Shown here piece after piece: positions 1-44,010 of a DNA stretch of 64,000 nt (position 1 is its first letter; every line of letters starts with the position of its first letter). Under the pieces are notes generated by a model that had not been told where the DNA came from, made no database searches, and saw only the letters and a program-made list of their open reading frames with translations. The stretch spans positions 3,294-67,293 of the forward strand of contig CAZIFB010000023.1 of the NCBI GenBank assembly GCA_964538915.1. Reading direction: 5' to 3'. The position numbers and the translations under genes were made by a program. The DNA comes from an uncultured candidatus Brocadiaceae bacterium. Its GTDB lineage: Bacteria > Planctomycetota > UBA1135 > UBA2386.

Positions 1-3000
1 TCGCGAGCGCGACCACCGCATAGCCGACGGCGGCGAGTGCGCCCGTCGCGACCGACCAGTCTTCCTGTGGCCACCAGTGGCGCATCGCGGCGTAGACGAC
101 GCAGGTGTGCGCGAGGTAGTGCGTGAACGACATGCGCCCGACGTTCGCCACCGGACGAAGCCGGCGCGGCAGTGCGCGTTCCCGCAGCCACCACACGAGG
201 GCCGCCGTCACGGCGATCGCCGCGCCGAAGCGCTGTGCCACGAACGCCAGCGAAGTCGGCTGCCACGTCGGGAGCAGCAGCGGGTCGGGATCGCCCCCAT
301 CGATCGCCGCGACCGCCGGGACGAGGTGCCCGGCGACCACGAGCAGCAGCGCGAGAACGCACCAGCGCGAGAGCCGCGCAGCATCGCGCGAACGCGCCAG
401 TACGGCGCCGATCAGAGGCAGGCACAGCCACGGCAGCAGCGGGTACGCGCCGTCGAGCACGAACCAGCGCAGCGTCGCGAGGCCGAACGAGTGGTTCGCG
501 ACGTGGGTCCCGTCGTCGAGGAGGTCGCTCGCGACGACCTCGCCGAACACGACCCCGACGAACGGCACGACCGACATGCCGACCGCGATCACGGCCGCGA
601 TCGCGAAGCGCCCGGCGCGCTGCAGCGCCACGGTGAGCGGCAGCATCAGGGCGAGCGGCACGAGCACGTCGTTCGGCCAGACGAACCACCAGAAAGGCGC
701 CCCGATCGCCGCCATCGCGAGCGCGCGGCGGCCGACCCAGGCCGCCGGCCGCGGCCGCATGGTCCATGCGACGCCCGCGAGGAGCAGGAACGTCGCTGCG
801 GGCACGCCCTCGAGCCACCCGAGGCTCTGGCGCACGAGCCAGGTGATCGCGACCGTGTCCGCTTCGGCCGGTTCGGGCACGAAGTGCAGCCACACCATAC
901 CGAGCACGGCGAGCCCGCGCACGACGTCGAACGCATCGACGCGCGATGGGGCATCGAGCGCCGCCGGCGCGCCTTCGTCCGCCAGCAGCGGCAGCGCGGC
1001 CTCGGCGACCTCGGCCGTCGGTGCGCCCGCGTAGCAGCGGCCCGGCAGCAGCGTCTCCCGCTTCATCACGACGCTGTGCGGCATCACGTGCGCCCCGTCG
1101 CCGACGTCCACGCCGTAGAGCAGGACCGCGCCCTTCCCGATCGTGCTGCCGCGCCCGATCCGCACCCGATCGATCTTGAGCACACGGTCCTCGAAGCTGT
1201 GCGCCTGGAAGAGCGCGTGCACCGTGGCGCCGTCTTCGATCGCGATCATGTCCGGATCGACGACCTGCGCGAACCCGTCGCCGAGCACACAGCCTCGGCC
1301 GATGCGCATCCCCATCAGCCGGAGGAACCACGGCAGCAGCAGCGTTCCCTCGAGGGCCTGCAGCAGCGTGCGACCGCAGCGCTGCCACAGCACGTAGTGG
1401 AAGTCCCATCGGCTGGCCCAGCACGACCACAGCCCGTGCTGGCCGGGGCGCACGCGGCCGAGCAGCAGCCACTTGGTCGCGACCACGACGGCGGCGAGCG
1501 CCGTGGTCACGACGAGCGTGGCGACGACCGAGGCCAGCCACCGGCCGGTGAAGCCGCCGCCCCCGGCGACACGATCCGCGATCGCGAACCACGCGAGGCC
1601 GGCCGCGGCGAGCAGACCGGGCAGAACGAAGCGCAGCGCTTCCCAGAAGACGCGGTTCGCGTAGCGGATCGGGCCCGGCTCGTGCGTGAGGCGGCGATCG
1701 ACCTCCACCACCTCGCGGCGCGGCAGAAGGAACGGCGGCTGGCCGAACCAGCCCGTTCCGGCCCGCATGCGTGCGTCGTCCGCGACGGTACTGATGCCGA
1801 GCAGCAGGTCGTCCGGCAGCCGTTGGCCCGTGGGCACGACGACGTGGTTGCCGACGAAGGTGCGATCGCCGAGTCCCGTCGTCGCAACCGCGACCGCGCC
1901 TCGGTGCACGTACGGGACGCCGAGGTAGACGCCGTCCGCGAGGAACGAGCCGCCGCCGATCGACGTGTGTTCGGGCAGGACGTCGAGAATCGTGCTGACC
2001 TCGACGTCGTCGCCGACGCGCATGCCCGCGAGCCGGAGCCACCGCGGCCAGAACAGCGTGCCCGAGAGCCACGTCCCCGCGCGCTCGAGCCACGCCGTGC
2101 GCACCGAAGCCCACGCGTGGCGCGCCGACCAGAGTCCGTGGGTTCCGGTGGGGATCTTCGGCGACCAGCGCAGGAGGAGCGCGGTCTGCAGGAGACCCGC
2201 AGGTACCGCGACGATCGCCACCACGACGACCAGCAGCGCGGCGTCGGGCTGTGTCCACGGGCCCGCGCCGCGCAGCCATGCGGCGATCGTGCCGCCGTCG
2301 AGCCCGCACCACGACGCGCCCCACCACGCCAGCAGCGCCATCGGCATCCAGGTCACCGGGCCGAGCACGGCGCGTGCCCCGAGCAGCAGCAACGAATGGC
2401 GCCTCGATGTCGCGGCGGACGGACCGGCCTGCGGCAATCCGCCAGGCGACGCGTTCGGCGCGGCCGGCACGCCACTCCACGCGGCACGGTCGGGCACGCG
2501 TGTTCCCGCCGGAGCGAACGACAGCGGTGCGAGCATCGCCCCGTCGCCGACGACGACGTCGGGCCCGGTGCCCGCGCGCGTGGCCAGTGTCGCGCCAGCG
2601 CCGATGCGCACGGGACCGATCACGAGTTCGCCCGCGTCCAGCTCGCACAGGCCGAGATCGACTTCGCGGCAGAGCGTCGCGTCGTCGCCGATCTCGAGCA
2701 GATCCCAGCCGCCGCCCGAGAGGTCGACGCCGCGGTGCACGTGGACACGCCTGCCGATGCGCGCGCCGAGCGAACGCAGCAGCACTCCGTACATCTCCGT
2801 GCCGGCGCAGAACGACCACGGCAGCGCCCGCGCCATCGTCGCGACGACCCAGTGACGCAGACGGAGCCCGCTCCAGGCGGACACGCGGCCCGGAACGTAG
2901 CGCCCGATCAGCAGCTCCTTCGCGGCAACGACGAGCCACCACAGGGCGAGCGACGCGAGGCCCGCGGTTGCGAGCGCGAGCCACGGTGCAGCGAGCAGGA

Positions 3001-4945
3001 AGGCGCCGAGCGGAAGCGAATCGAGCAGCCACGGCAACAGGTCGAACGCCACGAGGCCCACGGCGGTCGATCCGAGCCCGAGGAACCCGATGAGGAACAG
3101 CACCTGGCCCGCGGTGAACACCAGCAGCGATGCGCGCGAAGCCGGACCGGCGTCGCGACGGGCCGCTCCAGGCGTCGCCGCGGCGCTGCCCGGCACGCGC
3201 GCGCGAAGCACGAGGCCGGCGACGGTCGGTGCCTCGTAGAGATCGCGTACGGCGATCCGCGACATGCGTTCGTCGGCACGCAGCTGCGACACGAGCAGCG
3301 CCGCCCGGAGCGAGTTGCCCCCGAGTGCGAAGAAGTCGTCGCCGTCGCGGATCGCACTCGCGGGCACGGCGAGCACCTTCGCGAAGGCGGCGCGCACGCG
3401 GCCTGCGATCGAGTCGTCGGTGTGCACCGCGCCGATCGCCGCGATCCCGACGAACGGCAGCGAGCGACGGTCCACCTTGCCGCCGACGGTGCGCGGCACG
3501 CGCTCGAGCAGCGCGAGGCGCGTCGGCACCGCGATGGCCGGCAGTTCGGCGCGGACACGAGCCACCAGTTCGTCGAATCGCGGCGGCGCCGCCGGATCCG
3601 CCGGCACGACGTGCGCGACGAGATCGCGATCCGGCTCGTCGCCCTGGACGGTGCACACGACTTCGCGAACGCCGCCGACGCGCGCGAGCACCGCCTCGAC
3701 GGCTTCGAGTTCGATCCGATGGCCGCGCACCTTCACCTGCGCGTCGATGCGGCCGAGGTGGCGCAGTTCGCCGCGTTCGTCCTGCACGACCAGATCGCCG
3801 GTGCGGTAGACGCGACCGAGGCCGGGCAGGGTCGGAAAGCGCTCGGCAGTCAGAGCGTCGAGCCCGAGATAGCCGCGCGCGAGGCCTGGCCCTGCGATGC
3901 ACAGTTCGCCCGGCTCGCCGCGCGGCACGGGTCGGAGGTCCTCGCCGAGGACGTGCGCTGCGTGCGGCGGCACCGGCGTGCCGATCGTCACGGGTTCGCC
4001 CGCGCGAACGCGGCCGCGCACGACCGTGACCGAACACTCGGTCGGCCCGTAGCCGTTCTCGAGCCAGACGTCGCGACCCCACACCGCCGCGAGATCCGCC
4101 GGCAACGGTTCGCCGCCGACATACGCGAGGCGCAGGTCGGGCAACTCGTCGCGCGGCGAACGGCAGCCGAGCGCGCGGAGCAGTGTCGGCGGCGGACAGA
4201 GGATGGTGATCCGTTCGGCGCGCAACCACGGCAACAGATCGGGGCCGAGCCGTACGGTCTCGTCGTCCATCACGACGACCGTGGCGCCGCTCGCGAGCCC
4301 GAGCCAGATCTCCTCGACCGACGAGTCGTACGCGGGCGAACTGCCTTGCGCGATGCGATCACCCGGCCCCATTGCGAAGCGCGTCACGCCTTCGCGGATC
4401 AGGTTCACGACGCCGCGGTGCTCGATGCAGACGCCCTTCGGCCGACCGGTCGTGCCCGACGTATAGATGACGTAGGCGAGGCGGTTCGGGTCCGGACCCG
4501 GCAACGCCCGCGCATCCCGCCGCGGCACGTCGATGCCTGCGGGCACGAGGACGATCGGGACACCGAGCCCGGCGAAACGATCGGCGAACCCGGCCACCGT
4601 GACGATCGCAGCCGCCCCCGTGTCGCGCACGACGTGGTGCAGATGCGCGTCGGGGAACGACGGGTCGAGGCACACGTGCGCGCCGCCGGCGAGCAGCACC
4701 CCGAGCTGCGAAGCGACCAGCCACGGATCCTGCCGCGGCACGAGCACGACGATGCGCGACTCGTCGCCGACGCCGGGCCCGAGCTCGGCGGCGATCCACT
4801 CCGCCATGCGCTCGAGCTGCGCGAACGTCACCCTCAAGCGCTGGCGGCGGCCGTTCGCCGGGGGCACGTCGATGGCGACACGGTCCGCGTTCTTCGCGAC
4901 GCCGGCGACGAAGAGGTCCGTCAGCACGGCGCGTTCCTCGACCAC
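1..4945 (-). CDS. Pls/PosA-family NRPS-like homopoly(amino acid) synthetase: adenylation domain, PCP, TM-interleaved tandem C1/C2/C3 domains, plus extra C-terminal DUF418/YeiB-like membrane domain (3' end beyond window start)
   Basis: Absent from ORF track because there is no stop in the window. Hand translation of the minus frame (codon high coordinate = 1 mod 3) is open from GTG 4945 to base 1. A-domain motifs: LTDLFVAGVAKNADRVAI, YTSGTTGRPKGV (4430-4465), GYGPTE (4037-4054), YRTGD, GRIDAQVKVRGHRIELEAVE, PRTVGGKVDR. PCP motif FFALGGNSL (Ser codon 3311-3313). Then TM helices alternate with three related soluble repeats (LRSLGARIGRRVHV, LRLAGMRVGDDVEV, LRLMGMRIGRGCVL). The last ~320 aa read VDAFDVVRGLAVLGMVWLHF ... 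GRMSFTHYLAH. Confidence 0.85.
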   Translation of the reverse strand, partial: MVEERAVLTDLFVAGVAKNADRVAIDVPPANGRRQRLRVTFAQLERMAEWIAAELGPGVGDESRIVVLVPRQDPWLVASQLGVLLAGGAHVCLDPSFPDAHLHHVVRDTGAAAIVTVAGFADRFAGLGVPIVLVPAGIDVPRRDARALPGPDPNRLAYVIYTSGTTGRPKGVCIEHRGVVNLIREGVTRFAMGPGDRIAQGSSPAYDSSVEEIWLGLASGATVVVMDDETVRLGPDLLPWLRAERITILCPPPTLLRALGCRSPRDELPDLRLAYVGGEPLPADLAAVWGRDVWLENGYGPTECSVTVVRGRVRAGEPVTIGTPVPPHAAHVLGEDLRPVPRGEPGELCIAGPGLARGYLGLDALTAERFPTLPGLGRVYRTGDLVVQDERGELRHLGRIDAQVKVRGHRIELEAVEAVLARVGGVREVVCTVQGDEPDRDLVAHVVPADPAAPPRFDELVARVRAELPAIAVPTRLALLERVPRTVGGKVDRRSLPFVGIAAIGAVHTDDSIAGRVRAAFAKVLAVPASAIRDGDDFFALGGNSLRAALLVSQLRADERMSRIAVRDLYEAPTVAGLVLRARVPGSAAATPGAARRDAGPASRASLLVFTAGQVLFLIGFLGLGSTAVGLVAFDLLPWLLDSLPLGAFLLAAPWLALATAGLASLALWWLVVAAKELLIGRYVPGRVSAWSGLRLRHWVVATMARALPWSFCAGTEMYGVLLRSLGARIGRRVHVHRGVDLSGGGWDLLEIGDDATLCREVDLGLCELDAGELVIGPVRIGAGATLATRAGTGPDVVVGDGAMLAPLSFAPAGTRVPDRAAWSGVPAAPNASPGGLPQAGPSAATSRRHSLLLLGARAVLGPVTWMPMALLAWWGASWCGLDGGTIAAWLRGAGPWTQPDAALLVVVVAIVAVPAGLLQTALLLRWSPKIPTGTHGLWSARHAWASVRTAWLERAGTWLSGTLFWPRWLRLAGMRVGDDVEVSTILDVLPEHTSIGGGSFLADGVYLGVPYVHRGAVAVATTGLGDRTFVGNHVVVPTGQRLPDDLLLGISTVADDARMRAGTGWFGQPPFLLPRREVVEVDRRLTHEPGPIRYANRVFWEALRFVLPGLLAAAGLAWFAIADRVAGGGGFTGRWLASVVATLVVTTALAAVVVATKWLLLGRVRPGQHGLWSCWASRWDFHYVLWQRCGRTLLQALEGTLLLPWFLRLMGMRIGRGCVLGDGFAQVVDPDMIAIEDGATVHALFQAHSFEDRVLKIDRVRIGRGSTIGKGAVLLYGVDVGDGAHVMPHSVVMKRETLLPGRCYAGAPTAEVAEAALPLLADEGAPAALDAPSRVDAFDVVRGLAVLGMVWLHFVPEPAEADTVAITWLVRQSLGWLEGVPAATFLLLAGVAWTMRPRPAAWVGRRALAMAAIGAPFWWFVWPNDVLVPLALMLPLTVALQRAGRFAIAAVIAVGMSVVPFVGVVFGEVVASDLLDDGTHVANHSFGLATLRWFVLDGAYPLLPWLCLPLIGAVLARSRDAARLSRWCVLALLLVVAGHLVPAVAAIDGGDPDPLLLPTWQPTSLAFVAQRFGAAIAVTAALVWWLRERALPRRLRPVANVGRMSFTHYLAHTCVVYAAMRHWWPQEDWSVATGALAAVGYAVVALA

Positions 4946-4958
4946 GACCCGGCCGCGC

Positions 4959-5471
4959 TCAGTCCGCGTGCCCGTCGGCGGCGCGAAGCCACGGCGCCGC
5001 GCGGTCCGCGATCACGGCCCGCTGCGCGGTCGACAGGAACCGCCAGCCGCGGATCCAGCCGCGACACTCGGGCGCCCCGCACGAGCAGAAGAACGGCTCG
5101 GCCATCTCGTACTCGTTCGTTTCGTAGTCGAACGTGACGTCGTCGCCGACCGCGATGTCGCGCAACGCGACCAGTCTGCGCCCGCGCAGCAGCGCGTTCG
5201 GTCGGCACGAGTGGTTGAGGAAGCGCCAGGGATGGCGCCCGGAAGACCCGTCCGACTCGCCGATCCGACCGGCGGTCACGTGCTCGCCGGTGCCGATCTG
5301 CACCGAGTAGCGGTCGGGTCGATCGGCCACCTCGCCGTCCACGAACAGGATCTCGGTCCCCGCCGCGAACCCCGCCGCCGCGACCGTCGTGAGGCAGCCG
5401 TCGCGGCGTTCGACACGGACCCGGCGCTCGGTGACAGGGATGGGGTCGATGGCAGTGCGATGCGGCCGCAT
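4959..5471 (-). CDS. SET-domain protein-lysine N-methyltransferase-like protein (~170 aa)
   Basis: Track ORF 4959..5561 with start moved to Met31 (5471). SET core RFLNHSC (NHSC = 5205-5216), VTFDY, Cys-rich post-SET-like FFCSCGAPECRG. Stop at 4959 lies 13 nt upstream of GTG 4945 of the synthetase. Confidence 0.8.
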   Translation of the reverse strand: MRPHRTAIDPIPVTERRVRVERRDGCLTTVAAAGFAAGTEILFVDGEVADRPDRYSVQIGTGEHVTAGRIGESDGSSGRHPWRFLNHSCRPNALLRGRRLVALRDIAVGDDVTFDYETNEYEMAEPFFCSCGAPECRGWIRGWRFLSTAQRAVIADRAAPWLRAADGHAD

Positions 5472-5603
5472 GGAGGGCGTGCGAGGGGCGCGGGCAACGC
5501 GCAGCCGCCCGACGCCAACACCGCAAGGCCGAGATTCCCGACCGATGCGACACCGCGTCACCCGACACTGCTGTCCGGACCGAGCCGAACACCGGCTCCC
5601 CGT

Positions 5604-6821
5604 TCACCGCGGCGCGCCGACGAACGGCACGCCGTCGATGACAACGCCCGTGCAGTGCGTCGTGTACTCGAGCGGATCGCCGTCGAACATCGCGAGATCC
5701 GCGTCCTTGCCGGCCTCGAGCGAACCGATGCGCGCGTCGACGCCGAGCAGCTTCGCCGCGTCGATCGTGAGCGCGCGCAGCGCCGCGTCGGCGGGAAGGC
5801 CGTGCCCGACCGCGACGCCCGCTTCGAAGAGCACGACGCGCGTCTTCGGCACGTAACCTTCGAAGCCGCTCTGCAGTGCGAACGGCACCTTCGCCTCGAG
5901 CAGCAGGCGCGGCAGTTCCATCGTGCCGTTCTCCATCTCGCCGGTCGTGCGCGCCATGGCCGGATGCGGCAGCACGGGGACGTTCGCCGCCCGGATCTCC
6001 GGAAGCACGAGGTAGCTCTCCGCAGCGCCGTCGAGCACGACCCGGATCGAGAACTCCTGCGCGACGCGCAGCGCCGAGAGGATGTCGTTCGACCGGTGCG
6101 CGGTGACCAGCAACGGCACGTCACCGGCGAGCACCCTGGCCATCGCCTCGAGGCCGAGGTCGACCGGCGAGGCGGCGTCCTTCTCACGCTTGCCGGCGTA
6201 TTCGCGCGTCCGCTGCAGCAGTTCGCGCAGCATCGCGACGGACTTCGCGCGTGTGCCCGGCGACTTGCCCGCGCCGGCTCGGCCGGAGTCGCCGAGCGTG
6301 CAGGCGACCATCGCGAACGGCACGACGACATCCGTGTCGACCGTGCGGCCGCGCAGCTTGACCACGCACGTCTGGCCGGACACCAGGGCACCCGGCGCGT
6401 GGCCCGTGTGCGCGGTCGTCACCCCGAGGCCGCGCAGCCAGGCGACGAGTTCGTCGCGCGGATTGAACGCGTCGATCGCGCGAAGCTCGGGTTGTGTGGC
6501 GGCGGAGCGTTCGAGCTGGTCCTGGTCGTGCGGGATGTTCAGCAGGCCGCTGAGACCGACGGTCGAGTGCGCGTCGATCAGGCCCGGCATCACGACGGCG
6601 GCGCGGAGGACCTGCGCGCCCGATGGAACGTCGAGTTCGGCCGCCGGCACGACCCTCTCGATCTTGCCGTCCTTCACCAGCACCGCGCCGTCGGTGATCG
6701 GCGCCCCCGCCATCGTGATCACCTTGTCGCCGCGCACGACGACGACTCCCGTCGCCGCTTCGCCCTGAGGCACGGGCAGCGCCGACACGACCGTGAGTAC
6801 GAGGAGCGAGGAGAACATCAT
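5604..6821 (-). CDS. secreted metal-dependent amidohydrolase (prolidase-like/imidazolonepropionase-like subgroup)
   Basis: C-terminal 405 aa of track ORF 5604..8894. Start MMFSSLLVLTVVSALP (signal peptide) at 6821 overlaps the upstream stop (ATGA 6818-6821). Motifs PGLIDAHSTVG and GKDADLAMFDGDPLE. Confidence 0.85.
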   Translation of the reverse strand: MMFSSLLVLTVVSALPVPQGEAATGVVVVRGDKVITMAGAPITDGAVLVKDGKIERVVPAAELDVPSGAQVLRAAVVMPGLIDAHSTVGLSGLLNIPHDQDQLERSAATQPELRAIDAFNPRDELVAWLRGLGVTTAHTGHAPGALVSGQTCVVKLRGRTVDTDVVVPFAMVACTLGDSGRAGAGKSPGTRAKSVAMLRELLQRTREYAGKREKDAASPVDLGLEAMARVLAGDVPLLVTAHRSNDILSALRVAQEFSIRVVLDGAAESYLVLPEIRAANVPVLPHPAMARTTGEMENGTMELPRLLLEAKVPFALQSGFEGYVPKTRVVLFEAGVAVGHGLPADAALRALTIDAAKLLGVDARIGSLEAGKDADLAMFDGDPLEYTTHCTGVVIDGVPFVGAPR

Positions 6822-8131
6822 TGGCCTCCTTGCGCGGCGAAGCAGCACATCGACATCGCCTGCCCGTTGCTCGCGCCGTAGCCGCCCATCGCCATCAAGC
6901 GGTCCTTCGGATCCGCGAGGTCGAACACCTTCGTCCCTTCGACCCAGGTCTGCAGGACCTGCGTGTGCACCGACAGCGGATCGCCCGACAGCACGACGAA
7001 GTCCGCATCCTTGCCGACCGTGAGCGTGCCGATGCGGTCCTGCAGGTCGAGCATGCGCGCGTTGGCGATCGTCACCGACTCGAGCGCCTTCGCTCGATCC
7101 ATGCCCGCACGAACCGCGAGAGCCGCGGAACGGAGGAACAGCCGGCTGTCCGTGATGCCGTCGTCGGTGTGCAGACCCACGAGCACGCCGGCGCGATCGA
7201 GCACGGCCGCGGTCTCGAGCGACAGGTTCCTCGCTTCGAGCTTGCCGCCCGGAGAGTCGATCACGATGACCGAACACGGCACGCCGGCCGCCGCGATCTC
7301 GTTCGCGACGAGCGCGCCCTCGCTGACGTGGTGCAGTACGCAACGGAACCCGAACTCCTCGCGCAGGCGCAGCACGGTCAGGATGTCGTCCTGCCGGTGC
7401 GTGTGGTGGTGCACGACGCGCTTCCCTTCGAGCACCTCGACGAGCGCTTCGAGGCCGAGACTGCGCTCGGGCATCTTCTCGGGGTCGCCGTTCGCATCCG
7501 CGACCTTGCGCTGGTACTCCCGGGCGCGGAGGAACTGAGCCCGCACGAGCGCCGCGGCCTTGCCGCGGGTGCCGGCGAACGGCGGGTCGCGCTGCGGATT
7601 CGTGCCGTTCGCCATCTTGATCCCCCACGCGAGGCTGCCGTCGGCGTTCTTGATGGTGAGGTCGTCGACCGTGCGCCCGTCGCGCAGCTTGAGGTAGATC
7701 GTCTGGCCCGAGAGCAGGTGCCCGCTGCCGGGCATCACGTTCGCGGCGGTGATGCCGCCGGCCTGCGCCTTCTGGATGCCGGGATCTCGCGGATCGATGG
7801 AGTCGAGCGCGCGCACTTCGGGCTGGATCGGACCGCTTCCGTCGGCGCCCGCGACCGCACCGATGTGCGAGTGGCTGTCGACGAGCCCCGGCAGGATCGT
7901 CTTGCCCGTCGCATCGATCACGGTTGCGCCGTCGGGCACCGCGACGGCGTCGCGCGCGCCGATCGCTTCGATGCGGCCGCCGCGGACGAGCAGCGTGCCG
8001 TTCGTTATCGGCGGTCCGTCCACCGGGATCAGGGTCGCACCGACGAAGGCGTGCGGCGCGTCCTGGGCCGCGACCGCGACTGCGAGCAGGAGCGGCGACA
8101 ACGCCGCGCGAACGGAACGAGACCTGGTCAT
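6818..8131 (-). CDS. secreted metal-dependent amidohydrolase (paralogue of the downstream gene)
   Basis: Signal peptide MTRSRSVRAALSPLLLAVAVAAQD. Motifs PGLVDSHSHIG (HxH metal site), VHHHTHR, GLHTDDG, GKDADFVVLSGDPL. Confidence 0.9.
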   Translation of the reverse strand: MTRSRSVRAALSPLLLAVAVAAQDAPHAFVGATLIPVDGPPITNGTLLVRGGRIEAIGARDAVAVPDGATVIDATGKTILPGLVDSHSHIGAVAGADGSGPIQPEVRALDSIDPRDPGIQKAQAGGITAANVMPGSGHLLSGQTIYLKLRDGRTVDDLTIKNADGSLAWGIKMANGTNPQRDPPFAGTRGKAAALVRAQFLRAREYQRKVADANGDPEKMPERSLGLEALVEVLEGKRVVHHHTHRQDDILTVLRLREEFGFRCVLHHVSEGALVANEIAAAGVPCSVIVIDSPGGKLEARNLSLETAAVLDRAGVLVGLHTDDGITDSRLFLRSAALAVRAGMDRAKALESVTIANARMLDLQDRIGTLTVGKDADFVVLSGDPLSVHTQVLQTWVEGTKVFDLADPKDRLMAMGGYGASNGQAMSMCCFAAQGGQ

Positions 8132-8226
8132 GACGGTTGGTTACTCGCTGACTCCGCGAAAGGCCATCCACTCGGCGACAGAACCCGACGAACGTGGGCG
8201 CGGCGCACTCGAGCCCCCGGGCTTGG

Positions 8227-10251
8227 TCATCGCGCGAGTTCGCGCAGCAGACGATCCGCCGCGTAGACCTTGCGGAGCGACTCGACGATGCCCTTCGGGT
8301 GCACACACACGCTGCGTTCGACGCGTTCGCCGTACAGGAACTCGTTGGCGAGCGACTCGATGTTGCCGTCGAACAGGAGGCCCACCAGCTCGCCGCGTGC
8401 ACTGACGACGGGGCTGCCCGAGTTGCCTCCGGTCGAGTCGACCGTGCACACGAAATCGACCGGCGCCTGCATGTCGATGCGGTCCTTCGCCAGGAGCCAC
8501 TCGCGCGGCAGGTCGAACGGGTGCTGGTGATCGAACTCGGCGGCGCGGGCGAAGAGACCGTGGAAGACCGTGCGCCACGGTGCGCGCGACCCGTTGTACG
8601 GATAGCCGAGCACGCGGCCATCGCTCCACCGAAGCGTGAATGTCGCGTCCGGCGACACGTCGCTCCCGTACACCGCGAACAGGAGCTTCGCGAGATGGGT
8701 GCCCAGAGCGGCTTCGGCCGCGTCGATCGAACCTTGCAGCGCCTGATTCGCCAGATACAGGGATCGCACCGCGCGCCCCGCGACCAGAGCGACGTCGTCG
8801 CTCGACTCGATCGCCGACTTGCCGCCCGCGAGCAGCGAATCGAGGAACGCCGGGTCGGCCAGTCTGCTCTTCGACTGCAACGCAGCCGCGGCATCCTCCG
8901 GACTGCGCCCCCCGAGCAGCGCGGCCAGATACGGGTCGCCCTTCGGCAATGCGCGCGCCGCGCGACGCAGATGATCGACGAAGAAGGCCTCCTGCAGCGG
9001 ATTCGGCGAGCAGTCGACGTCGCGTGCTTTCTTCGCCTGCGCCTCGTCGCCCTTCTCCGCGAACTCGAGGACGATGGACGCGCGGATCAAGAGCGGTGAG
9101 CCGCCGTGCGTCTGGAAGTTGAGCGGGGACTCGAGTTCGCGGCGCTTCTGCATCAGGCTCGCGATCCGTTGCCACAAGGCGAGTTCGCCACCGCGGCCGC
9201 TGTCGGCAAGGCGCGCCTTGAACACCCGCTCGGCTTCGGCCTTGCGCGCCATGAACGCCGGATCCGACAGCGCCGCGTGTTCGCCGCGGTAGAGCTTCTG
9301 CCCGTTCTCCAGGCCGAGGATCGTCGTGCGCACCTTCTTCTCGGACTCTGCATCCCTGCTCGCGAAGGCGCGCAGGATCTCGATGCGCGAATCGATCATC
9401 TCGCGGATCCGCGGATAGCGCGCGTCGCGCTGGTACTCGAGCTGCGCCGTCGTGAGCAGTCGCTGCGTTCCGCCGGGATTGCCGGTCAGGAACACGAGAT
9501 CGCCCTCGGCCGGGCCATCGCCCCACGGGAAGTGGAACGCCTCGGTGTCCGCCGGCTTGCCGTCGACGTACGCGCGGCAGAAGGAGAAGTCGACCGCGTA
9601 ACGCGGATAGACGAAGTTGTCCGTGTCGCCGCCGAAGTGCGACACCTGCAGGTGCGGCGCCATCACGAGCCGTACGTCGTCGAAGATGCGGTACTGGTAG
9701 AGCTGCCACACGCCACCGTGGAACAGCTTCACGATCTGTGGATCGAGACTCGGCTGCTCGCGCCGCGCGTCGGCAAGGATGCGTTCGCGGTTCTTCGTGC
9801 GCACGCGCTCGGCCTCCTCGTCGGCCGTGCCGTCCGCGACGCCCGCGCTGACGGCCGCGGTCACGTCGGACATGCGCACGAGCTGCTGCACGGTGAGACC
9901 TTCGAGCCGCACTTCGTCGCCGAGGTCGCGCGCGACGAATCCGTCGCGAACCCAGTCCGCGGCTCCCTGCGCCTTCGCGACCGCGTCGCGCACGCAGTGG
10001 TGGTTCGTCAGGATCAGACCCTGCGGTGAAACGAACGATGCGGAGCAGCCGCGACCGAAGCGGAGCGACGCGAGGCGCATTCGGGTCCACCACGCCTCGT
10101 CCGCGACGAAGCCGTACTCGCGCTTCAGGTAGTCGAGTGGCGGTCGCTCGAACGTCCACATTCGGCCGAGGCCGAGTTCGTCCTGAGCGAGCGCGGATAC
10201 GGAGATGCCGAGCGCGGCGACGAAAGCCGCGCAGAATCGAGACGAGGGCAT
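8227..10251 (-). CDS. S46-family dipeptidyl-peptidase (DPP7/DPP11-like serine peptidase)
   Basis: Signal peptide MPSSRFCAAFVAALGISVSALAQD. S46 hallmarks CSASFVSPQGLILTNHHC (His region) and GGNSGSPVVSARGELVGLLFDGN (catalytic Ser region). Confidence 0.9.
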   Translation of the reverse strand: MPSSRFCAAFVAALGISVSALAQDELGLGRMWTFERPPLDYLKREYGFVADEAWWTRMRLASLRFGRGCSASFVSPQGLILTNHHCVRDAVAKAQGAADWVRDGFVARDLGDEVRLEGLTVQQLVRMSDVTAAVSAGVADGTADEEAERVRTKNRERILADARREQPSLDPQIVKLFHGGVWQLYQYRIFDDVRLVMAPHLQVSHFGGDTDNFVYPRYAVDFSFCRAYVDGKPADTEAFHFPWGDGPAEGDLVFLTGNPGGTQRLLTTAQLEYQRDARYPRIREMIDSRIEILRAFASRDAESEKKVRTTILGLENGQKLYRGEHAALSDPAFMARKAEAERVFKARLADSGRGGELALWQRIASLMQKRRELESPLNFQTHGGSPLLIRASIVLEFAEKGDEAQAKKARDVDCSPNPLQEAFFVDHLRRAARALPKGDPYLAALLGGRSPEDAAAALQSKSRLADPAFLDSLLAGGKSAIESSDDVALVAGRAVRSLYLANQALQGSIDAAEAALGTHLAKLLFAVYGSDVSPDATFTLRWSDGRVLGYPYNGSRAPWRTVFHGLFARAAEFDHQHPFDLPREWLLAKDRIDMQAPVDFVCTVDSTGGNSGSPVVSARGELVGLLFDGNIESLANEFLYGERVERSVCVHPKGIVESLRKVYAADRLLRELAR

Positions 10252-10260
10252 GGCGTTTCC

Positions 10261-11403
10261 TTACCGCACGGTGGCGGGTTCTGCACCGGACTTCGCGGCC
10301 GCGTGCCACTTCGCGAGCAGCGACGCTTCCCGCTCCGCCGGGAGCCCGGTGCGCCCGAAGGGCCTGGCGCCGCGCTCGCCCTTCGCCCATTGCAGCGTGT
10401 CCCGCACGGTGTCGCCGACGGGGCGGAAGCGCAGGCCGGCCGCGATCGCCTTCGTGTTGTCGACGACCGTGCGCGCCCCGCGCGGGATCCACAGCGGCAT
10501 CTGCATCCACGGGCGCACGTCGTTCTCGGCGAGGAACTCCTCGTCGGCCCAGGTCAGAGTGACCGCGCTGGATGTCGCGCACTTGCAGGCCGAGAGCACA
10601 TCCCCCATCGACACGCGCCCGGCGAAGCCGTTGACGTTGTGCACGCCGGTGACGTTCCGCTCGATGCAGTGCAACATGAACTCGGCGAGGTCGCGCACGT
10701 CGACGAACTGCACTTGCCCGTCCGGATCGCCCGGTGCGAGCACTTCACCGCCCTTGTCGATGCGCACGGGCCACCACGTGAATCGATCGCTCGTGTCGCC
10801 GGGGCCGACGATGAGTCCGGGACGCAACGTCGACACCTTGCCAGGCATCGCCGCCTCGGCCGCCGCCTCGCAGCGCGCCTTCAGCGGCCCGTAGAACGGC
10901 ATTGCCTGCGCGATCGCGTTGACGCCCTCGACCTTTCCGTCCTCGACCTCCGCGACGGGCGTCGCCTCGTCGATCGTGTCGGGGCGCTGGCCGAAGCTTC
11001 CGTAGACGGAGATCGTGCTGATGAACTGATAGTGCTCGCACGAACCGGCGAAGAGCTTCGCCGTCGCTTCGACGTGCGCCGGCACATAGCCCGACGTGTC
11101 GACCACCGCGTCGAACGTGCGTCCCTCCAGCGAAGCGAGATCCCCGGTGTCGCGGTCGCCCCGCAGGTGCTCGAGGTCGGGGAACAGCCCGGGGTTGGTC
11201 TTGCCGCGATGGAACAGGGTCACTTTGTGCCCGTTCGCCAGCGCCGCGCGAACGAAGTGCGGCCCGAGGAAGCCGGTGCCGCCGAGCACGAGGATCTTCT
11301 TCGCGCGGGCGGGGTGCCGCGCCACGGCCCCGCGCGCCAGCGGTGCGAGCGCACCGGCGGCAGCCATCGACGACAGGAACGAGCGGCGCGTAGGTCCGAG
11401 CAT
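10261..11403 (-). CDS. Tat-signal NAD(P)-binding epimerase/dehydratase-family (extended SDR) protein
   Basis: Tat-like RRSFLSSMAAAGALAPLARG. Rossmann motif KKILVLGGTGFLGPHFV. Ends 9 bp upstream of the S46 peptidase start, same strand. Confidence 0.8.
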   Translation of the reverse strand: MLGPTRRSFLSSMAAAGALAPLARGAVARHPARAKKILVLGGTGFLGPHFVRAALANGHKVTLFHRGKTNPGLFPDLEHLRGDRDTGDLASLEGRTFDAVVDTSGYVPAHVEATAKLFAGSCEHYQFISTISVYGSFGQRPDTIDEATPVAEVEDGKVEGVNAIAQAMPFYGPLKARCEAAAEAAMPGKVSTLRPGLIVGPGDTSDRFTWWPVRIDKGGEVLAPGDPDGQVQFVDVRDLAEFMLHCIERNVTGVHNVNGFAGRVSMGDVLSACKCATSSAVTLTWADEEFLAENDVRPWMQMPLWIPRGARTVVDNTKAIAAGLRFRPVGDTVRDTLQWAKGERGARPFGRTGLPAEREASLLAKWHAAAKSGAEPATVR

Positions 11404-11569
11404 GGGCCCCTTCTACGGAGCTCGCCGGGCGCGCGTTGGCGGCATCTGCCCCGCGAGGGATGCGCCGCGCCAAGGCCCGGGCGCCGAGGGATCCATGGCA
11501 TCGGTTACCGGCGCCAAGGACGCTGGCTACCATGCGCCGGTCGCCGCAGATGCCCTTCCAGGAGACCCC

Positions 11570-12757
11570 ATGCTCACTCGTTCGCGCGTTGCGTCCGTCG
11601 GCACTTCGTTCCTTCTCCTCACCGCCGCCGCCGCGGCCCAGTCCGTCATCGTCGTCGACGGTCTGAATCGCCCCGGCACCCACTTCCTCGACCTGCCCGC
11701 CGCCGAGGCGGCCGCGGTCAATGGCGACACCATCCTGCTGCGTACCGACGGTGGCAGCTACCACGGAGTCACGACGAGCAAGGCGTTGACGATCACCGGC
11801 GGCGCTTCTGCCTACGCGACGATCATCGGCCCCGCGCCGTGCTTCACGATCAGCGGCCTCGCAGCCGGTGCCGATTTCGTGTTGCAGAACATCGAGGTGC
11901 TCTCGTCGGGTGCGGCCGGCCCGGCGATCAGCGTGCAGGCGTGCCTCGGGCGGGTGCACCTCGTGCACGTGGATGCATACAACTACTCCGGGCCGCCCGG
12001 CCTCGACATCTCACTGTGCAGCGCCGTCACGGTGCGCGACGGGACGTTCCTCGGCCGGCCCGGCCTGCGCGCGCAGAACACCACCCTGGCTGCCAGCGGC
12101 GCTCGCTTCTACGGGCAGCCTGGCGCTTCGGCGACGATCCTGCCGAGCGCCGGCGCCAGGCTCGTCGACTGCACCGCGTGGTTCTCGGACGTGCAGGCGT
12201 TCGGCGGCAACGGGTGGCACACCGACGCTCCGGGTTCCGGGCTCGAACTGACGAACACCACGCTGTCGATGACCGGTGCGTCGAACGCTTCGCGCGCGAT
12301 GAGTGGCTATCTCGGCACCCAGGCGACGCCGGGATTCACCGCAGCCGTCCCGGCCATCGTGGGACAGAACAGCCTGTTGCGCATCGACCCGGACGTCGTG
12401 CTCGGCACGATCGGAGGTGCTTCACCGATCGTCGGCGCCACGGCCACCACCGCGACCATTCCGTCGTTCTCGCTCTACGGCGTGTGGAACCTCTTCACGA
12501 TGACGGACCCGGGCACGTCCACCGCGGTGATGACGGTCGTCGGTTTCCCGGCGAACCCGCTGTCCCTGCCCGGCGTCGAAGGCCGCCTGTGGCTCGACCC
12601 CGCCGGGATGTTCGCGGTGGCCGGCGTACTCGGCGGCTACACGGGCTTCAACGAGACCATGCTCCCGCTCGGCTTCACGTTCACGATCCAGTTCGCGGCG
12701 CTGCAGGGCGCAACACTCGAACTGTCGCCGCCCGCGATCGCACGCCGCCGGGAGTGA
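11570..12757 (+). CDS. secreted hypothetical protein, possibly parallel beta-helix
   Basis: Start moved to ATG 11570 (GGAGAC just upstream) inside track ORF 11096..12757. Signal peptide MLTRSRVASVGTSFLLLTAAAAAQS. Gly/Thr/Ala-rich strands (ITGGASAYATIIG, FVLQNIEV). No family recognised. The C-terminal ~85 aa is shared with two other secreted proteins in this window. Confidence 0.65.
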   Translation: MLTRSRVASVGTSFLLLTAAAAAQSVIVVDGLNRPGTHFLDLPAAEAAAVNGDTILLRTDGGSYHGVTTSKALTITGGASAYATIIGPAPCFTISGLAAGADFVLQNIEVLSSGAAGPAISVQACLGRVHLVHVDAYNYSGPPGLDISLCSAVTVRDGTFLGRPGLRAQNTTLAASGARFYGQPGASATILPSAGARLVDCTAWFSDVQAFGGNGWHTDAPGSGLELTNTTLSMTGASNASRAMSGYLGTQATPGFTAAVPAIVGQNSLLRIDPDVVLGTIGGASPIVGATATTATIPSFSLYGVWNLFTMTDPGTSTAVMTVVGFPANPLSLPGVEGRLWLDPAGMFAVAGVLGGYTGFNETMLPLGFTFTIQFAALQGATLELSPPAIARRRE

Positions 12758-13998: not shown

Positions 13999-15432
13999 TC
14001 AGTTGTTCGTGTAGACGTCGATGGCGTTCGACATCGCGAAACCGAGCGCATTCGCCGCGGGGTCGTACGCGGCAGCCTGCACGCTGCAAGCCGTGCCGAC
14101 CAGCGCCGGCGACACCGGCATAGTGAACGACTGCGTCGCAACGCCGTTCGCGTCCGCGAGGAGCAGTAGAAGCGAGTCGGGACTGGCAAGAAGACGGTTG
14201 CCCGGCGCTCCGAGCGGACCCAGGTCGACGTCCACGTTGGCGCCGATCAAGAACAGAGAGAGGCCGTTCGCCAGCTGGCCACGCACGTCGAAGAAGACGC
14301 TCTTCCCGGTCGCACAGCTGCCACGCGTGGTCACGCGCGGCTTGTTGCCGATGCTCGTGGTACCCGAGCCGCCACGGCGCACCAGGCGGCTCGCAACCGG
14401 CAGCGTCGGGTCGTTCCAGTGGCAACGCACCTGCTGTCCCGAGAGTCCCGTGATCCCGTCCTGCCGCCCGTCGCCATCGACGTCACCGAACGGACGCGGC
14501 GCGATCGACGTCGAGCCGAGGAAGGTCAACGTGGCGCCGCTCACGATGTCGCGGACGGGCGAGGTCAGCACGGAGAAGTCGTCGTGACCGTCCCCGTCGA
14601 AGTCTCCCATCGGAATCACGTCGACCAGGCTGGACGACGAGTCCTGCGGGATCGATCCGAGGACCGGACCGGTACCACCATCCCGCACTTCGGAAACGCC
14701 CAGCACGACGTTGCGGACGATGAAGTCTGCGCTGCCGTTGTTGTTGACGTCGCCGATCAGCCGCGGCCGGAAACCGTTCTCCGAGCCCATCGTGGACGTC
14801 GTGAACGTGGGCCCGAGCACGTTGCGGAGTATGCCGCTGAAGACGTCCACGGTGGAATAGTCCGCGTATCCGTCGCCGTTCAGATCGCCGACGAAGCCTC
14901 GCATGTTGAAGCCGAACAAGATCGGGATCGAGTGGAGGATGCCCCCGGTCCGGCCGGAGCGGACTTCAAAGCGATCCCCGGCGCGAATCAGCGTGTCGTC
15001 ATGGCCGTCCGCGTCGAGGTCTCCACCGCCGTACGACTCGACGAACCCGCCGAAGGTGCTGGAGTACGCCGACCACGTGTGCAGCGTCGAACCGTCGGCG
15101 CCGGACACGACCGTCGCGACGATGCCCGGCTGCCGCCACACCAGATCGTCGCGACCGTCCGCGTTCACGTCCCCCGCAGGAAAGTAGCCGTTCACCGAGT
15201 CCGTCCACGGCCGCGTGAGATGCGCGATCGTCGTGCCAGCGAGGTCGCGGCAGACGACAACATCCGCCCCGACGACTCCCGAGTAGTCCGCGTTCCCGTC
15301 GCCATCCACGTCCCCGACGCACACCGGAGCGGGAACGGGGTACGGCGCGCCGATCATCACGGACTGTGCGACGGTGGACACCGCGAAGAAGGACGAAGCG
15401 GTCACCAACGCGAGTGGAGAGAGAGTCGGCAC
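13999..15432 (-). CDS. secreted FG-GAP/VCBS repeat protein
   Basis: GTG start at 15432 and a signal peptide. Repeated Ca-binding loops GDVDGDGNADY, GDVNADGRDDL, GDLDADGHDD, GDLNGDGYADY, GDVNNNGSADF, GDFDGDGHDDF, GDVDGDGRQD. C-terminal ~85-aa shared module. Confidence 0.85.
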   Translation of the reverse strand: MPTLSPLALVTASSFFAVSTVAQSVMIGAPYPVPAPVCVGDVDGDGNADYSGVVGADVVVCRDLAGTTIAHLTRPWTDSVNGYFPAGDVNADGRDDLVWRQPGIVATVVSGADGSTLHTWSAYSSTFGGFVESYGGGDLDADGHDDTLIRAGDRFEVRSGRTGGILHSIPILFGFNMRGFVGDLNGDGYADYSTVDVFSGILRNVLGPTFTTSTMGSENGFRPRLIGDVNNNGSADFIVRNVVLGVSEVRDGGTGPVLGSIPQDSSSSLVDVIPMGDFDGDGHDDFSVLTSPVRDIVSGATLTFLGSTSIAPRPFGDVDGDGRQDGITGLSGQQVRCHWNDPTLPVASRLVRRGGSGTTSIGNKPRVTTRGSCATGKSVFFDVRGQLANGLSLFLIGANVDVDLGPLGAPGNRLLASPDSLLLLLADANGVATQSFTMPVSPALVGTACSVQAAAYDPAANALGFAMSNAIDVYTNN

Positions 15433-15676
15433 GAGAGTTCCTTTGGCAAGGTCGAGAGACGCCGCATGCTACCGCGCCGCGACGAGCGTCGGGGCTTCGA
15501 GGTCGCGCCGCGGGGCTTCCGTGGTGCCGCGCTTCACGCGCTTGCGCCGGCAGCAAAGAGCGCCGCCCAGGAAGGACGGCCATGACCGTTCGAGCCCTTC
15601 CCGAGTAACTGGGCAACGGCTATAGCGCCGGCCTGCGATCGCCCTGCAATTCGCGAGAACACTCGTCCGCCCGGCG

Positions 15677-15890
15677 TGGAGTTGCCGCTTGCGAGGGTGC
15701 GGCGAAGCCGCGCGCGAGCAATGACCGACTCCCCGGGCTACCTGGCCGGCGCGCTCCGTGCGATACGCCTGGTACGCCCGGCATGGAGTTGCCGCTTGCG
15801 AGGGTGCGGCGAAGCCGCGCGCGAGCAACGCCCGACTCCCCGGGCTACCTGGCCGGCGCGCTCCGCGCGCCGCGCCTGGTACGCCCGGCA
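15677..15890. repeat. 2 x 107-bp head-to-tail direct repeat; each unit ends with the last 14 nt of tRNA-Arg
   Basis: Unit 1 is 15677-15783 and unit 2 is 15784-15890, with 101/107 identical by hand alignment. Both end in cctggtacgcccggca. Unit 2 runs into the genuine tRNA. A degenerate third copy of the tRNA 3' end lies at 15661-15676. Confidence 0.85.
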
Positions 15891-18730: not shown

Positions 18731-19947
18731 ACGACGGCCACGACGTGCTGGTGATCGGCGCGGGACCCGCGGGCGCAACCGCGGCCGGCCTCCTGGCCCA
18801 GACCGGTCACCACGTGCTCGTTCTCGAGAAGGACGAGTTCCCGCGCTTCCACATCGGCGAGTCGCTGCTGCCCGCGGGCCTTCCCGTGCTCGAACGGCTC
18901 GGCATCGATCCCTCGAAGGACACGTTCGTCTACAAGGCCGGCGCCGAGTTCGTCTGCGAAGAGAGCGGGCGGCGCGGCGTCTTCGTCTTCCGCGAGTCGC
19001 TGCCCGGATGCGCGCGCCACGCGTGGCACGTCGATCGCGCCCGCTTCGACAAGGCGCTGCGCGACCGCGCCGTCGCGCTCGGCGCGGAGATCCGCCACGG
19101 CGCGACCGTGGTCGACGCGGGCGTGAACGGCGACTCCGTGTTCGTAAAGACGCGCGAGGCCACGTTCCGTGGGCGCTACCTGATCGATGCGTCGGGCCAG
19201 TCGCGGCTGCTCGGGCGACGAGCGGGCACGCTGAAACCGTACGACCGCTTCGGCCACTGCTCGGTGTTCACGCACTACGAAGGACTCGGCGATGCGGCGG
19301 TCGAAGAGATCGGGCCGACGACGAACAACATCCGCATCATGCTGCGACCCGAGGGCTGGGGCTGGATCATCCCGTTGCCCGATCGCGCCCTCAGCGTCGG
19401 CATCGTCGGGCGAGCGAAGATGACGCCCGACGACCTCGATCGTGGCCTGATCGAGAGCCCGATGGTGAAGCGGCTCACCGCCGGTGCACGCCGGCTCGGC
19501 ACACACGTGGTCGGCAACTTCAGCTATCGCAACACGGTGCCGTCGGGCTCACGGTTCACGTCGATCGGGGACGCCGCGTGCTTCCTCGACCCGGTCTTCT
19601 CGTCGGGCGTGACGCTCGCGCTGCGCGGTGCCGAAGCGGTCGCCGACAAGCTCTCGGACGCGCTGAAGAACGGCACCGAGGCCGACCCCGCGTTGCTGCA
19701 CGCCCACGACAGCGGGATGGATCGCGCATACCGCACGTTCGCCGCGCTGATCGAGCGCTTCTATCACACGAACTTCGCCGAGACGATGTTCCTCGGCCCC
19801 GTCGACGACCAGCCGCTGCGGCGCGGCGTGATGAGCGTGCTCGCGGGCGACGTCTGGCGCGAGGGCAATCCGTTCCAGGACATGCTGCTCGCAGCGAAGC
19901 GCAAGGAGAAGGCGGCGGACGCGAGGCGGAGCGGCCATGCGAACTGA
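18727..19947 (+). CDS. FAD-dependent halogenase-like oxidoreductase
   Basis: C-terminal part of track ORF 17563..19947. Motifs VLVIGAGPAGATAA (GxGxxG), EGWGWIIPL (WxWxIP, 19354-19377), FLDPVFSSGV. Confidence 0.8.
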   Translation: MNDGHDVLVIGAGPAGATAAGLLAQTGHHVLVLEKDEFPRFHIGESLLPAGLPVLERLGIDPSKDTFVYKAGAEFVCEESGRRGVFVFRESLPGCARHAWHVDRARFDKALRDRAVALGAEIRHGATVVDAGVNGDSVFVKTREATFRGRYLIDASGQSRLLGRRAGTLKPYDRFGHCSVFTHYEGLGDAAVEEIGPTTNNIRIMLRPEGWGWIIPLPDRALSVGIVGRAKMTPDDLDRGLIESPMVKRLTAGARRLGTHVVGNFSYRNTVPSGSRFTSIGDAACFLDPVFSSGVTLALRGAEAVADKLSDALKNGTEADPALLHAHDSGMDRAYRTFAALIERFYHTNFAETMFLGPVDDQPLRRGVMSVLAGDVWREGNPFQDMLLAAKRKEKAADARRSGHAN

Positions 19948-43840: not shown

Positions 43841-44010
43841 GACATCCTCCGCATCCCGTTTCGGCATCGCGCGCGCCACGCGGGTGGACCACTACGGAAA
43901 ACTCCGCCCTGCCGCCCCTGCTCCGGCGCCGAACCCTCGATGGCGCCGGGAGACCCGATCCGGGACGAACTTGCGCGGCCCGGCGACGCCCACCTACCAT
44001 CGCCGCGCGC

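Follow-up and report, generated by a model that had tools for sequence, protein, structure and literature searches.

In a 64,000-nucleotide stretch of contig CAZIFB010000023.1 (the window), taken from the assembly of an uncultured candidatus Brocadiaceae bacterium (GCA_964538915.1), we found a gene for a small SET-domain methyltransferase directly upstream of a gene for a synthetase of the Pls/PosA type, the type of enzyme that makes cationic homopolymers of amino acids. The arrangement is widespread, since in 62 of the 79 informative loci that we collected around relatives of the SET gene, a Pls-like synthetase is encoded directly downstream on the same strand. Behind the pair there is probably a family of methylated cationic polymers of amino acids that has yet to be described. 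Our specific proposal is that the two genes form a self-contained cassette, in which the SET enzyme would make a methylated cationic amino acid and the synthetase would polymerise that product; we place roughly even confidence in this proposal.

Because the G+C content of the window is high (70-73%), the raw list of open reading frames (ORFs) is crowded with spurious frames, and third-position G+C (GC3) was used to pick the real genes. A single minus-strand frame stays open from 5011 to base 2 with a GC3 of 0.90. Within it the synthetase gene occupies 2..4945 of the minus strand, as called from the open frame, GC3 and domain matches, with at least 1648 amino acids visible and the 3' end beyond the window. 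Its start candidate, a GTG at 4945, lies 13 nt past the stop codon of the SET gene (4961..4959); an alternative GTG at 4927 has GAGGAA six bases upstream, and the gap between the two genes is thus either 13 nt or 31 nt. The closest relative, locus L001 (82% identical), has its gap called likewise at 13 nt, identical in length to the spacer of the window (4946..4958, minus strand). Because the L001 orthologue is complete at 1673 amino acids, about 25 residues of the synthetase are expected to be missing beyond base 1. The SET gene itself (170 codons and a stop, 4959..5471, minus strand) is supported by a Pfam SET match and by GC3 that is high exactly across this interval, confirming the 170-residue SET gene that the initial annotation had placed 13 nt upstream of the synthetase.

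From its N terminus the synthetase reads as an adenylation (A) domain, a peptidyl carrier or thiolation (T) domain, and a terminal region in which transmembrane (TM) helices alternate with three soluble domains, for an overall layout of A-T-(TM/C1/TM/C2/TM/C3). The A domain (residues 16-490; 3476..4900, minus strand) matches Pfam AMP-binding over residues 16-360 (E 7.6e-68) and AMP-binding_C over residues 416-490, scores 343 bits against the NCBIfam TIGR01733 cutoff of 317 for synthetase A domains, and contains the core motifs YTSGTTGRPKG, NGYGPTE, YRTGD and GGKVDR. The carrier domain (residues 516-579; 3209..3400, minus strand) has a GGNSL phosphopantetheine site and a PP-binding score of 40.3 bits (cutoff 20.8). 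Neither a condensation (PF00668) nor a thioesterase (PF00975) domain was found among the Pfam matches of the synthetase. One A domain and one carrier, without condensation or thioesterase domains, is also the composition of Pls, which makes epsilon-poly-L-lysine in Streptomyces albulus, and of PosA, which makes delta-poly-L-ornithine in Acinetobacter baumannii.

The likeness extends through the terminal region (residues 614-1309; 1019..3106, minus strand), which aligns with profile positions 3-694 of 695 of TIGR02353, 'Pls/PosA family' (E 6.6e-103). This is the full length of the ~700-residue terminal region of TM helices and three tandem soluble domains that typifies this family of cationic homo-poly(amino acid) (CHPA) synthetases. 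Hydropathy places hydrophobic segments at ~603-681, 896-927 and 1099-1163, and these separate the hexapeptide-repeat-like soluble domains C1 (~682-895), C2 (~928-1098) and C3 (~1164-1330). The three are mutually similar, with pairwise z values of 4.5, 8.2 and 11.5 against shuffles, and Pfam Hexapep matches residues 1261-1293. The TIGR02353 score of 345.3 bits, however, is under the curated NCBIfam cutoff of 423.1, and the terminal region is only 27-35% identical to those of annotated family members. As judged from these alignments, the synthetase belongs to a divergent sister clade of the Pls/PosA family. Because this clade scores under the TIGR02353 cutoff, labels assigned by the Prokaryotic Genome Annotation Pipeline (PGAP) differ: plasmid genes at the level of the clade are called 'amino acid adenylation domain-containing protein', and most others 'Pls/PosA family'. 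All of the profile searches that the initial annotation had proposed (AMP-binding, PP-binding, TIGR02353 and SET) returned matches, with TIGR02353 below cutoff. The Pls-type layout that it described, with one A domain, one carrier, no condensation or thioesterase domain and three similar repeats interleaved with TM helices, holds, but a membrane domain fused to the C terminus had been overlooked.

This last domain (residues 1335-1648 and beyond; 2..943, minus strand) is polytopic, with about eight or more hydrophobic segments by hydropathy, and departs from the classical Pls layout. It matches HGSNAT_cat (PF07786) at 29.7 bits (cutoff 22) and DUF418 (PF04235) at 35.7 bits (cutoff 23.6), whereas Acyl_transf_3, at 25.8 bits, is under its cutoff of 31. 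On these profile matches, we assign it to the acyltransferase-3 superfamily (HGSNAT_cat/DUF1624 and DUF418), whose members, among them HGSNAT, DUF1624 and DUF418/YeiB-like proteins, likewise have polytopic membrane domains. The domain also has an R-x-D-x-x-D-x-x-R-G-like signature near its N terminus, which we take to be in keeping with that superfamily. What sets it apart from other acyltransferase-3 members is its partner, a Pls-like synthetase to which it is joined by fusion or by translational coupling. An HGSNAT/DUF418 domain follows the synthetase in 11 of the 62 linked loci; in locus L002 it is a separate third gene, all three genes overlapping by 4 nt, and in L023 it is apparently a separate gene, judged from ORF length. 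By analogy with its relatives, the fused domain may acylate the product or aid its export across the membrane.

The Pfam SET model matches the small upstream protein at 33.4 bits (cutoff 22.4), over residues 74-116 of 170 only. Across 28 homologues, N86, H87 and C89 (in NHSC), Y116 (in FDY) and the post-SET cysteines C129, C131 and C136 do not vary; H87, C89, Y116, C129, C131 and C136 are invariant also in 81 SET sequences derived from the collected loci. The GxG-type motif (IHGTGVFA) of the outgroups P0029 and P0032 is replaced in this family. The protein has no signal peptide and no TM segment, and its AlphaFold model has a pLDDT, the model's confidence score, of 88. The best match in the PDB by family profile is BurB (9l4t, E 1.3e-20), with the SET domains of MLL and ASH1L at ~1e-19. 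By fold, a Foldseek search with the AlphaFold model again returned BurB first (9l4v, E 5.2e-12), with 30% identity over 157 columns spanning the whole chain, and histone methyltransferases followed at ~1e-8 and 21-25% identity.

BurB, from Burkholderia thailandensis, S-methylates free L-methionine to S-methylmethionine, the first step toward the building block derived from dimethylsulfoniopropionate (DMSP) in the malleicyprol pathway, a thiotemplate pathway (PMC12542666). Contacts to the bound amino acid come from the main chain of BurB at residues 70, 73, 130 and 132, and a gating loop closes the pocket after S-adenosylmethionine (SAM) has bound (PMC12542666). Like BurB (9l4t, 9l4v) and its homologue MSMT of Streptomyces mobaraensis, both of which are L-methionine S-methyltransferases, the window protein is a small single-domain SET protein of ~170 residues. 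It has the CxCGxxxC post-SET cluster of BurB, and its family and BurB have in common a (S/T)(V/L)Q(V/I/L) strand motif with a His six residues later, as well as T-E and Phe motifs. The two are nevertheless distinct, being only ~30% identical. The window family keeps the Asn of NHSC where BurB has Leu; its invariant Trp82 and Arg83 map, in the profile alignment, to BurB Ser88 and Gly89; a conserved acidic Asp/Glu at position 122 maps to BurB Val130; and the loop from His64 to Trp82 is longer. The genetic partner is a Pls-like synthetase, and not BurI, BurD, BurE or BurA. The differences at the equivalents of Ser88 and Val130 argue against simple orthology to BurB, and from the added acidic residue at position 122 we infer only a hint of a basic substrate.

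The initial annotation had taken SET domains to be lysine N-methyltransferases, and the homologues are named protein-lysine N-methyltransferases by NCBI. Were that naming apt, the enzyme might methylate the synthetase, for example at a lysine of a catalytic or carrier domain, or some other protein, without contributing to product chemistry. The canonical motifs (NHSC, the catalytic-site Tyr and the post-SET zinc cluster) are indeed intact, and histone-type SET domains are strong matches in their own right. Such a role in protein methylation is nonetheless improbable, as BurB is the better match by both profile and fold over the whole length, and the motifs specific to BurB around its amino-acid-binding strands are present. 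Moreover, the tie to a single synthetase clade with an unusual pocket, described below, points to product chemistry. The lysine N-methyltransferase description is too narrow here, given that the closest relative of solved structure methylates free methionine.

Fusions elsewhere in the SET family, which comprises ~410 cluster representatives at E <= 1e-30 in a library-wide profile search, bear on the same question. An ATP-grasp ligase domain (Dala_Dala_lig_C) is fused to SET, mostly to two SETs, in P0365, P0370, P0375, P0381, P0392 and P0275. These proteins are ~460-670 residues long (1415 in the case of P0275), and their C-terminal SET is a strong match to the window family. Being fusions to amino-acid ligases, they tie the family to amide-forming enzymes and not to chromatin-like targets, which is a further point against protein methylation. 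Tandem arrays of SET domains also occur within single proteins (P0273, 1479 residues; P0274, 1449; P0276, 960), with up to nine copies (nine matched stretches, 617 bits).

To collect the loci, the SET alignment was run against a set of genomes with one representative per species. This returned 425 relatives; the best 80 were fetched, 79 were informative, and a tblastn survey of them gave the 62 linked loci. At least seven phyla are represented, including Planctomycetota, Verrucomicrobiota, Actinomycetota, Acidobacteriota, Armatimonadota and Pseudomonadota. Linked Planctomycetota include metagenome-assembled genomes labelled Phycisphaerae and Brocadiia, and linked Actinomycetota include cultured members of Amycolatopsis, Lentzea, Planosporangium and Gandjariella. 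As one example of the constancy of the pair, five SET homologues (44-82% identity) are each followed by an A-T-hexapeptide gene of 1305-1673 codons, and the flanks differ every time. In all 62 linked loci a start codon for the synthetase lies between -16 and +66 nt from the SET stop, with a 4-nt overlap in 15, which, read from sequence, is close enough for co-transcription and translational coupling. No in-frame fusion of SET and synthetase was found among these 62 loci, each SET having its own stop codon.

Beyond the pair itself, an all-against-all comparison of flanking ORFs revealed only lineage-specific synteny, with no family present in more than 8 of 56 loci. Since no further flanking family is shared more widely than this, the conserved unit is the pair, plus the HGSNAT/DUF418 domain in the minority of loci noted above. 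Plasmids tell a similar story. PLSDB contains 47 plasmid or chromid records with a Pls/PosA terminal domain, of which only the 4 at the level of the clade (51% identity) also encode a SET of the window family; none of the other 43 (Azospirillum, Rhodococcus, Acinetobacter, Mycobacterium, Rhizobium and others, 27-35% identity) was among the SET matches. A dedicated SET partner thus sets the window clade apart from Pls/PosA, and for posA 'no obvious neighboring, cotranscribed genes' were reported (PMC10522769).

It might still be asked whether the adjacency has any meaning, or whether it reflects chance or the inherited synteny of unrelated genes, given that SET relatives and synthetases are each found without the other in some loci. 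We regard this as very improbable, because the pairing persists in most of the loci despite differing flanks, spans several phyla and has a spacing suited to translational coupling, and because SET co-occurs on plasmids with clade-level synthetases only. The survey of gene neighbourhoods that the initial annotation had proposed thus found a pairing that is conserved and not accidental. That annotation had held that the association would be refuted if the SET gene were not conserved beside Pls-like genes in related genomes and were transcribed separately; the pairing is widely kept, but the evidence goes partly that way, since some synthetases with the same specificity code have no adjacent SET gene, as discussed below.

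Several linked loci have additional features that we note in passing. In one Planctomycetota lineage (8 loci: L026, L043, L045, L048, L049, L056, L059 and L087) the order is methyltransferase, SET, synthetase; in L026 a class I SAM-dependent methyltransferase gene (3015-4397, plus strand; Methyltransf_11, E 1.5e-12) lies ~180 nt upstream of SET on the same strand. The extra enzyme suggests more than one methylation step. Locus L005 has a divergent 4'-phosphopantetheinyl transferase gene upstream of SET (9243-9911, minus strand) and, after the synthetase, a gene for a 356-residue protein (14740-15810, plus strand) with weak, sub-threshold matches to the predicted Zn-protease family DUF2268, which could be an enzyme of product degradation or self-protection. 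In L063 (8533-9000, Amycolatopsis sp. NPDC058986) the synthetase match ends after ~120-150 codons and gives way to unrelated sequence, and the gene looks like a disrupted pseudogene.

Extraction of the specificity code by alignment, as proposed in the initial annotation, gave D S E C Y G G V T K for the window enzyme. The acidic residues that had been read by eye in the pocket are indeed there, at position 1 (Asp) and position 3 (Glu), as in all CHPA synthetases (PMC10522769), and that reading was essentially right. The conclusion that the pocket is Lys/Orn-like holds only in part, as the code is that of an orphan A domain, described below, with no preference for lysine (Lys), ornithine (Orn), diaminobutyrate (Dab) or diaminopropionate (Dap). 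The code is exact in 51 of the 58 SET-linked synthetases that could be assessed, and partial reads in 3 are consistent with it. The remaining 4 have substitutions, of one residue in three cases and of three residues in L018. Applied to genes outside the clade, the same procedure gave DAESIGTVIK (L099) and DFEALGTVTK (L111, L119), which resemble published Lys- and Dap-type codes; no SET gene is near any of these three, L099 having almost no upstream DNA to inspect. A single metagenome scan, although dominated by generic TSGTTGKP matches, gave L094, L095 and three genes from outside the clade.

DSECYGGVTK is unlike the Lys, Orn, Dab, Dap or beta-Lys codes of Pls/PosA synthetases. The identical code was reported by Patel et al. 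in 2023 for two uncharacterised CHPA synthetases, OFZ39577.1 (Bdellovibrionales, 'Bdello_A') and WP_072382105.1 (Novosphingobium) (PMC10522769). When purified, the A domain of OFZ39577.1 preferred none of Dap, Dab, Orn and Lys, and it activated L-Arg only modestly; Patel et al. doubted that L-Arg is the real substrate and proposed 'a larger analog'. They noted that the chain-length position of its pocket is occupied by Ser and that PosA's polar residues for holding the terminal amine are missing (PMC10522769). That study examined the isolated Bdello_A A domain alone and did not mention a SET neighbour (PMC10522769). The A domain of the window is ~42% identical to our reconstruction of Bdello_A, which was made from supplementary DNA damaged by optical character recognition. 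A protein search with the rebuilt A domain, in a database that seems to stop at about 1260 residues, gave nothing above 48% identity and no collected locus matched, so the OFZ39577.1 locus itself was not found. The small Ser at the chain-length position, the Gly in place of the amine-holding Thr/Ser, and the Tyr in the pocket together favour a substrate whose long side chain ends in a bulky cationic group. As far as a pocket code can be read, this favours methylated Lys, Orn or Arg as the substrate, with S-methylmethionine less likely.

These considerations lead to the following model. With SAM as methyl donor, the cytoplasmic SET enzyme would modify a free amino acid on its side chain, and the methylated product would be a bulky, cationic monomer; we favour an N-methylated basic amino acid of the methyl-Lys, methyl-Orn or methyl-Arg type, the alternative, by analogy with BurB, being S-methylmethionine. 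The A domain would then select the methylated monomer and load it on the carrier domain, with Asp235 expected to bind the alpha-amine; the bulky cation would be held by Glu239, by the Tyr of the pocket and by the Gly found there in place of the usual Thr/Ser. As in epsilon-polylysine synthetase, the terminal domains in the membrane would then transfer one monomer after another to a free acceptor amine. The outcome would be an exported, methylated, polycationic oligomer or polymer, which the fused HGSNAT/DUF418 domain, where present, may acylate or help across the membrane. Further support comes from the ATP-grasp fusions, from the phosphopantetheinyl transferase gene beside the cassette in L005 and from the class I methyltransferase gene of one lineage. 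Supply of a precursor is, in our view, the most economical reading of the SET-synthetase pair.

A number of observations weigh against this model. Four synthetases with the code DSECYGGVTK (L093, from Gemmatimonadaceae assembly GCA_035559475.1, and L095, L174 and L176) have no SET gene within ~3-5 kb upstream, and two with variant codes (L175, and L177 from assembly GCA_031401355.1) are also without an adjacent SET. If their genomes are without any SET, the substrate of the A domain could not be a SET product. On Streptomyces plasmids, the SET gene lies 13.5 kb from the synthetase and on the opposite strand, and for 17 of the 79 SET relatives the context is unrelated and lacks a synthetase. 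The chemistry imposes limits as well. Methionine has no second amine, so an isopeptide polymer of S-methylmethionine is impossible and an alpha-linked backbone would be forced; di- or trimethyl-lysine, likewise, could not form epsilon-links.

The same evidence can be read in favour of a tailoring role for the SET enzyme, in which the synthetase would activate an ordinary cationic amino acid (Arg, for example, or an analogue of Arg or Lys), and the SET enzyme would be an optional decorator that methylates either the monomer on its carrier or free amines of the oligomer, whether growing or finished. The code is identical whether or not a SET gene adjoins, and in the A-domain tree the SET-less synthetases of the clade are dispersed and do not group together, which is the pattern that repeated loss of an accessory gene would produce. 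The one A domain of identical code that has been tested does activate unmodified L-Arg, and the further methyltransferase of one lineage is typical of tailoring sets. A tailoring role is the main rival of our model, though we consider it less likely. The gated pocket of BurB closes around a single free amino acid, and a polymer or a carrier-tethered substrate fits it poorly. The activity with L-Arg was only modest, and Patel et al. themselves doubted that it is the real substrate. The product of Pls probably leaves the cell while being made, which would put it out of reach of a cytoplasmic SET enzyme.

The distribution of unlinked genes also suggests separation over loss. We considered whether the orphan SETs form a subfamily of their own and rejected this, as they are interspersed with linked SETs in a neighbour-joining tree and keep all of the invariant residues. 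On the plasmids, the SET gene has stayed on the replicon of the synthetase. In Gemmatimonadota, the 6 SET loci that were fetched all lack a linked synthetase, and the single synthetase locus examined (L093) has no adjacent SET, a pattern that fits an unlinked arrangement but is not proof of one. Look-ups centred on the synthetase, the last of which gave four loci without SET, are a small and biased sample that we do not treat as a frequency. The bias arises because no match from the homologue database exceeded 1259 residues, while full-length synthetases of the clade have 1305-1673; its synthetase matches are fragments, N-terminally short genes or truncated gene calls. For the plasmids, the example examined was the 220-kb linear plasmid of Streptomyces sp. 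NBC_00060 (L091, NZ_CP108254.1 80000-112000), with which three others are near-identical. The synthetase, of code DSECYGGVTK, lies at 88031-92050 and SET at 105610-106212, and five of the intervening genes encode hypothetical proteins of ~460-480 residues.

Upstream of SET in the window, the GC3 signal is lost over a non-coding gap of 132 nt (5472..5603, minus strand), which extends to the end of an amidohydrolase gene at 5604. The gap is likely the promoter region of the two-gene cassette, and is ~83% identical to its counterpart in L001 (9885-10000). Comparison of the two revealed a conserved block of ~70 nt, TCGGGAATCTCGG ... GCGTTGCCCGCGCCCC. A search around the SET gene found no sigma-70-like promoter and no intrinsic terminator, though the consensus may not apply to this host, and no Rfam match, whether to a riboswitch or to another RNA family, was found in positions 1..12000 of the window.

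The genes that follow on the minus strand encode two tandem amidohydrolases (5604-6815 and 6818-8131), an S46 dipeptidyl-peptidase (8227-10251) and an NAD-dependent epimerase (10261-11403). They are probably not members of the cassette, as their synteny is found in L001 only and is absent from other contexts. Four more distant genes have no visible tie to the cassette: those for a beta-ketoacyl synthase (19937-21103, plus strand), a 1722-residue FG-GAP/DUF7133/cytochrome c/3-keto-disaccharide hydrolase protein (22381-27546, plus strand), a protein like FAD-dependent halogenases or monooxygenases (35872-37644, minus strand) and an MMPL-like transporter (43377-47165, plus strand).

To our knowledge, only seven cationic homo-poly(amino acid)s have been described, six earlier ones and delta-poly-L-ornithine. 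Epsilon-polylysine is in use as an industrial food preservative. Full-text searches of the literature found no report of a SET partner for a Pls-type synthetase, returning fungal chromatin papers only, and no report of SET enzymes in bacterial nonribosomal peptide synthetase clusters other than BurB; the statement in the initial annotation that no Pls-SET pairing was known agrees with this. A clade with a dedicated methyltransferase would extend CHPA chemistry to methylated, and possibly permanently charged, monomers. We tentatively suggest, at somewhat less than even confidence, an undescribed natural polycation, whose cassette would be widespread in Planctomycetota, Verrucomicrobiota, Gemmatimonadota and rare actinomycetes. 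It would be a homo-oligomer or homopolymer of a SAM-methylated amino acid, with secondary to quaternary ammonium, methyl-guanidinium or sulfonium side chains. A fully methylated or sulfonium side chain would require alpha-links in the backbone in place of isopeptide links.

The 2023 study of PosA left the substrate of the DSECYGGVTK A domain unidentified, and the adjoining SET gene is an obvious candidate for its source; the pairing may thus explain a synthetase whose substrate that study could not find. With the cassette, BurB would also gain a large second counterpart among SET domains that likely act on small molecules and not on proteins. Cultured carriers, namely Amycolatopsis vastitatis H5, Gandjariella thermophila, Planosporangium spp., Lentzea and the Streptomyces NBC strains with their plasmids, make these predictions directly testable. 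If they are borne out, then, given the ATP-grasp ligase fusions, a general role as 'monomer-making' partner to polymerases that form amides would fall to the BurB-like SET family.

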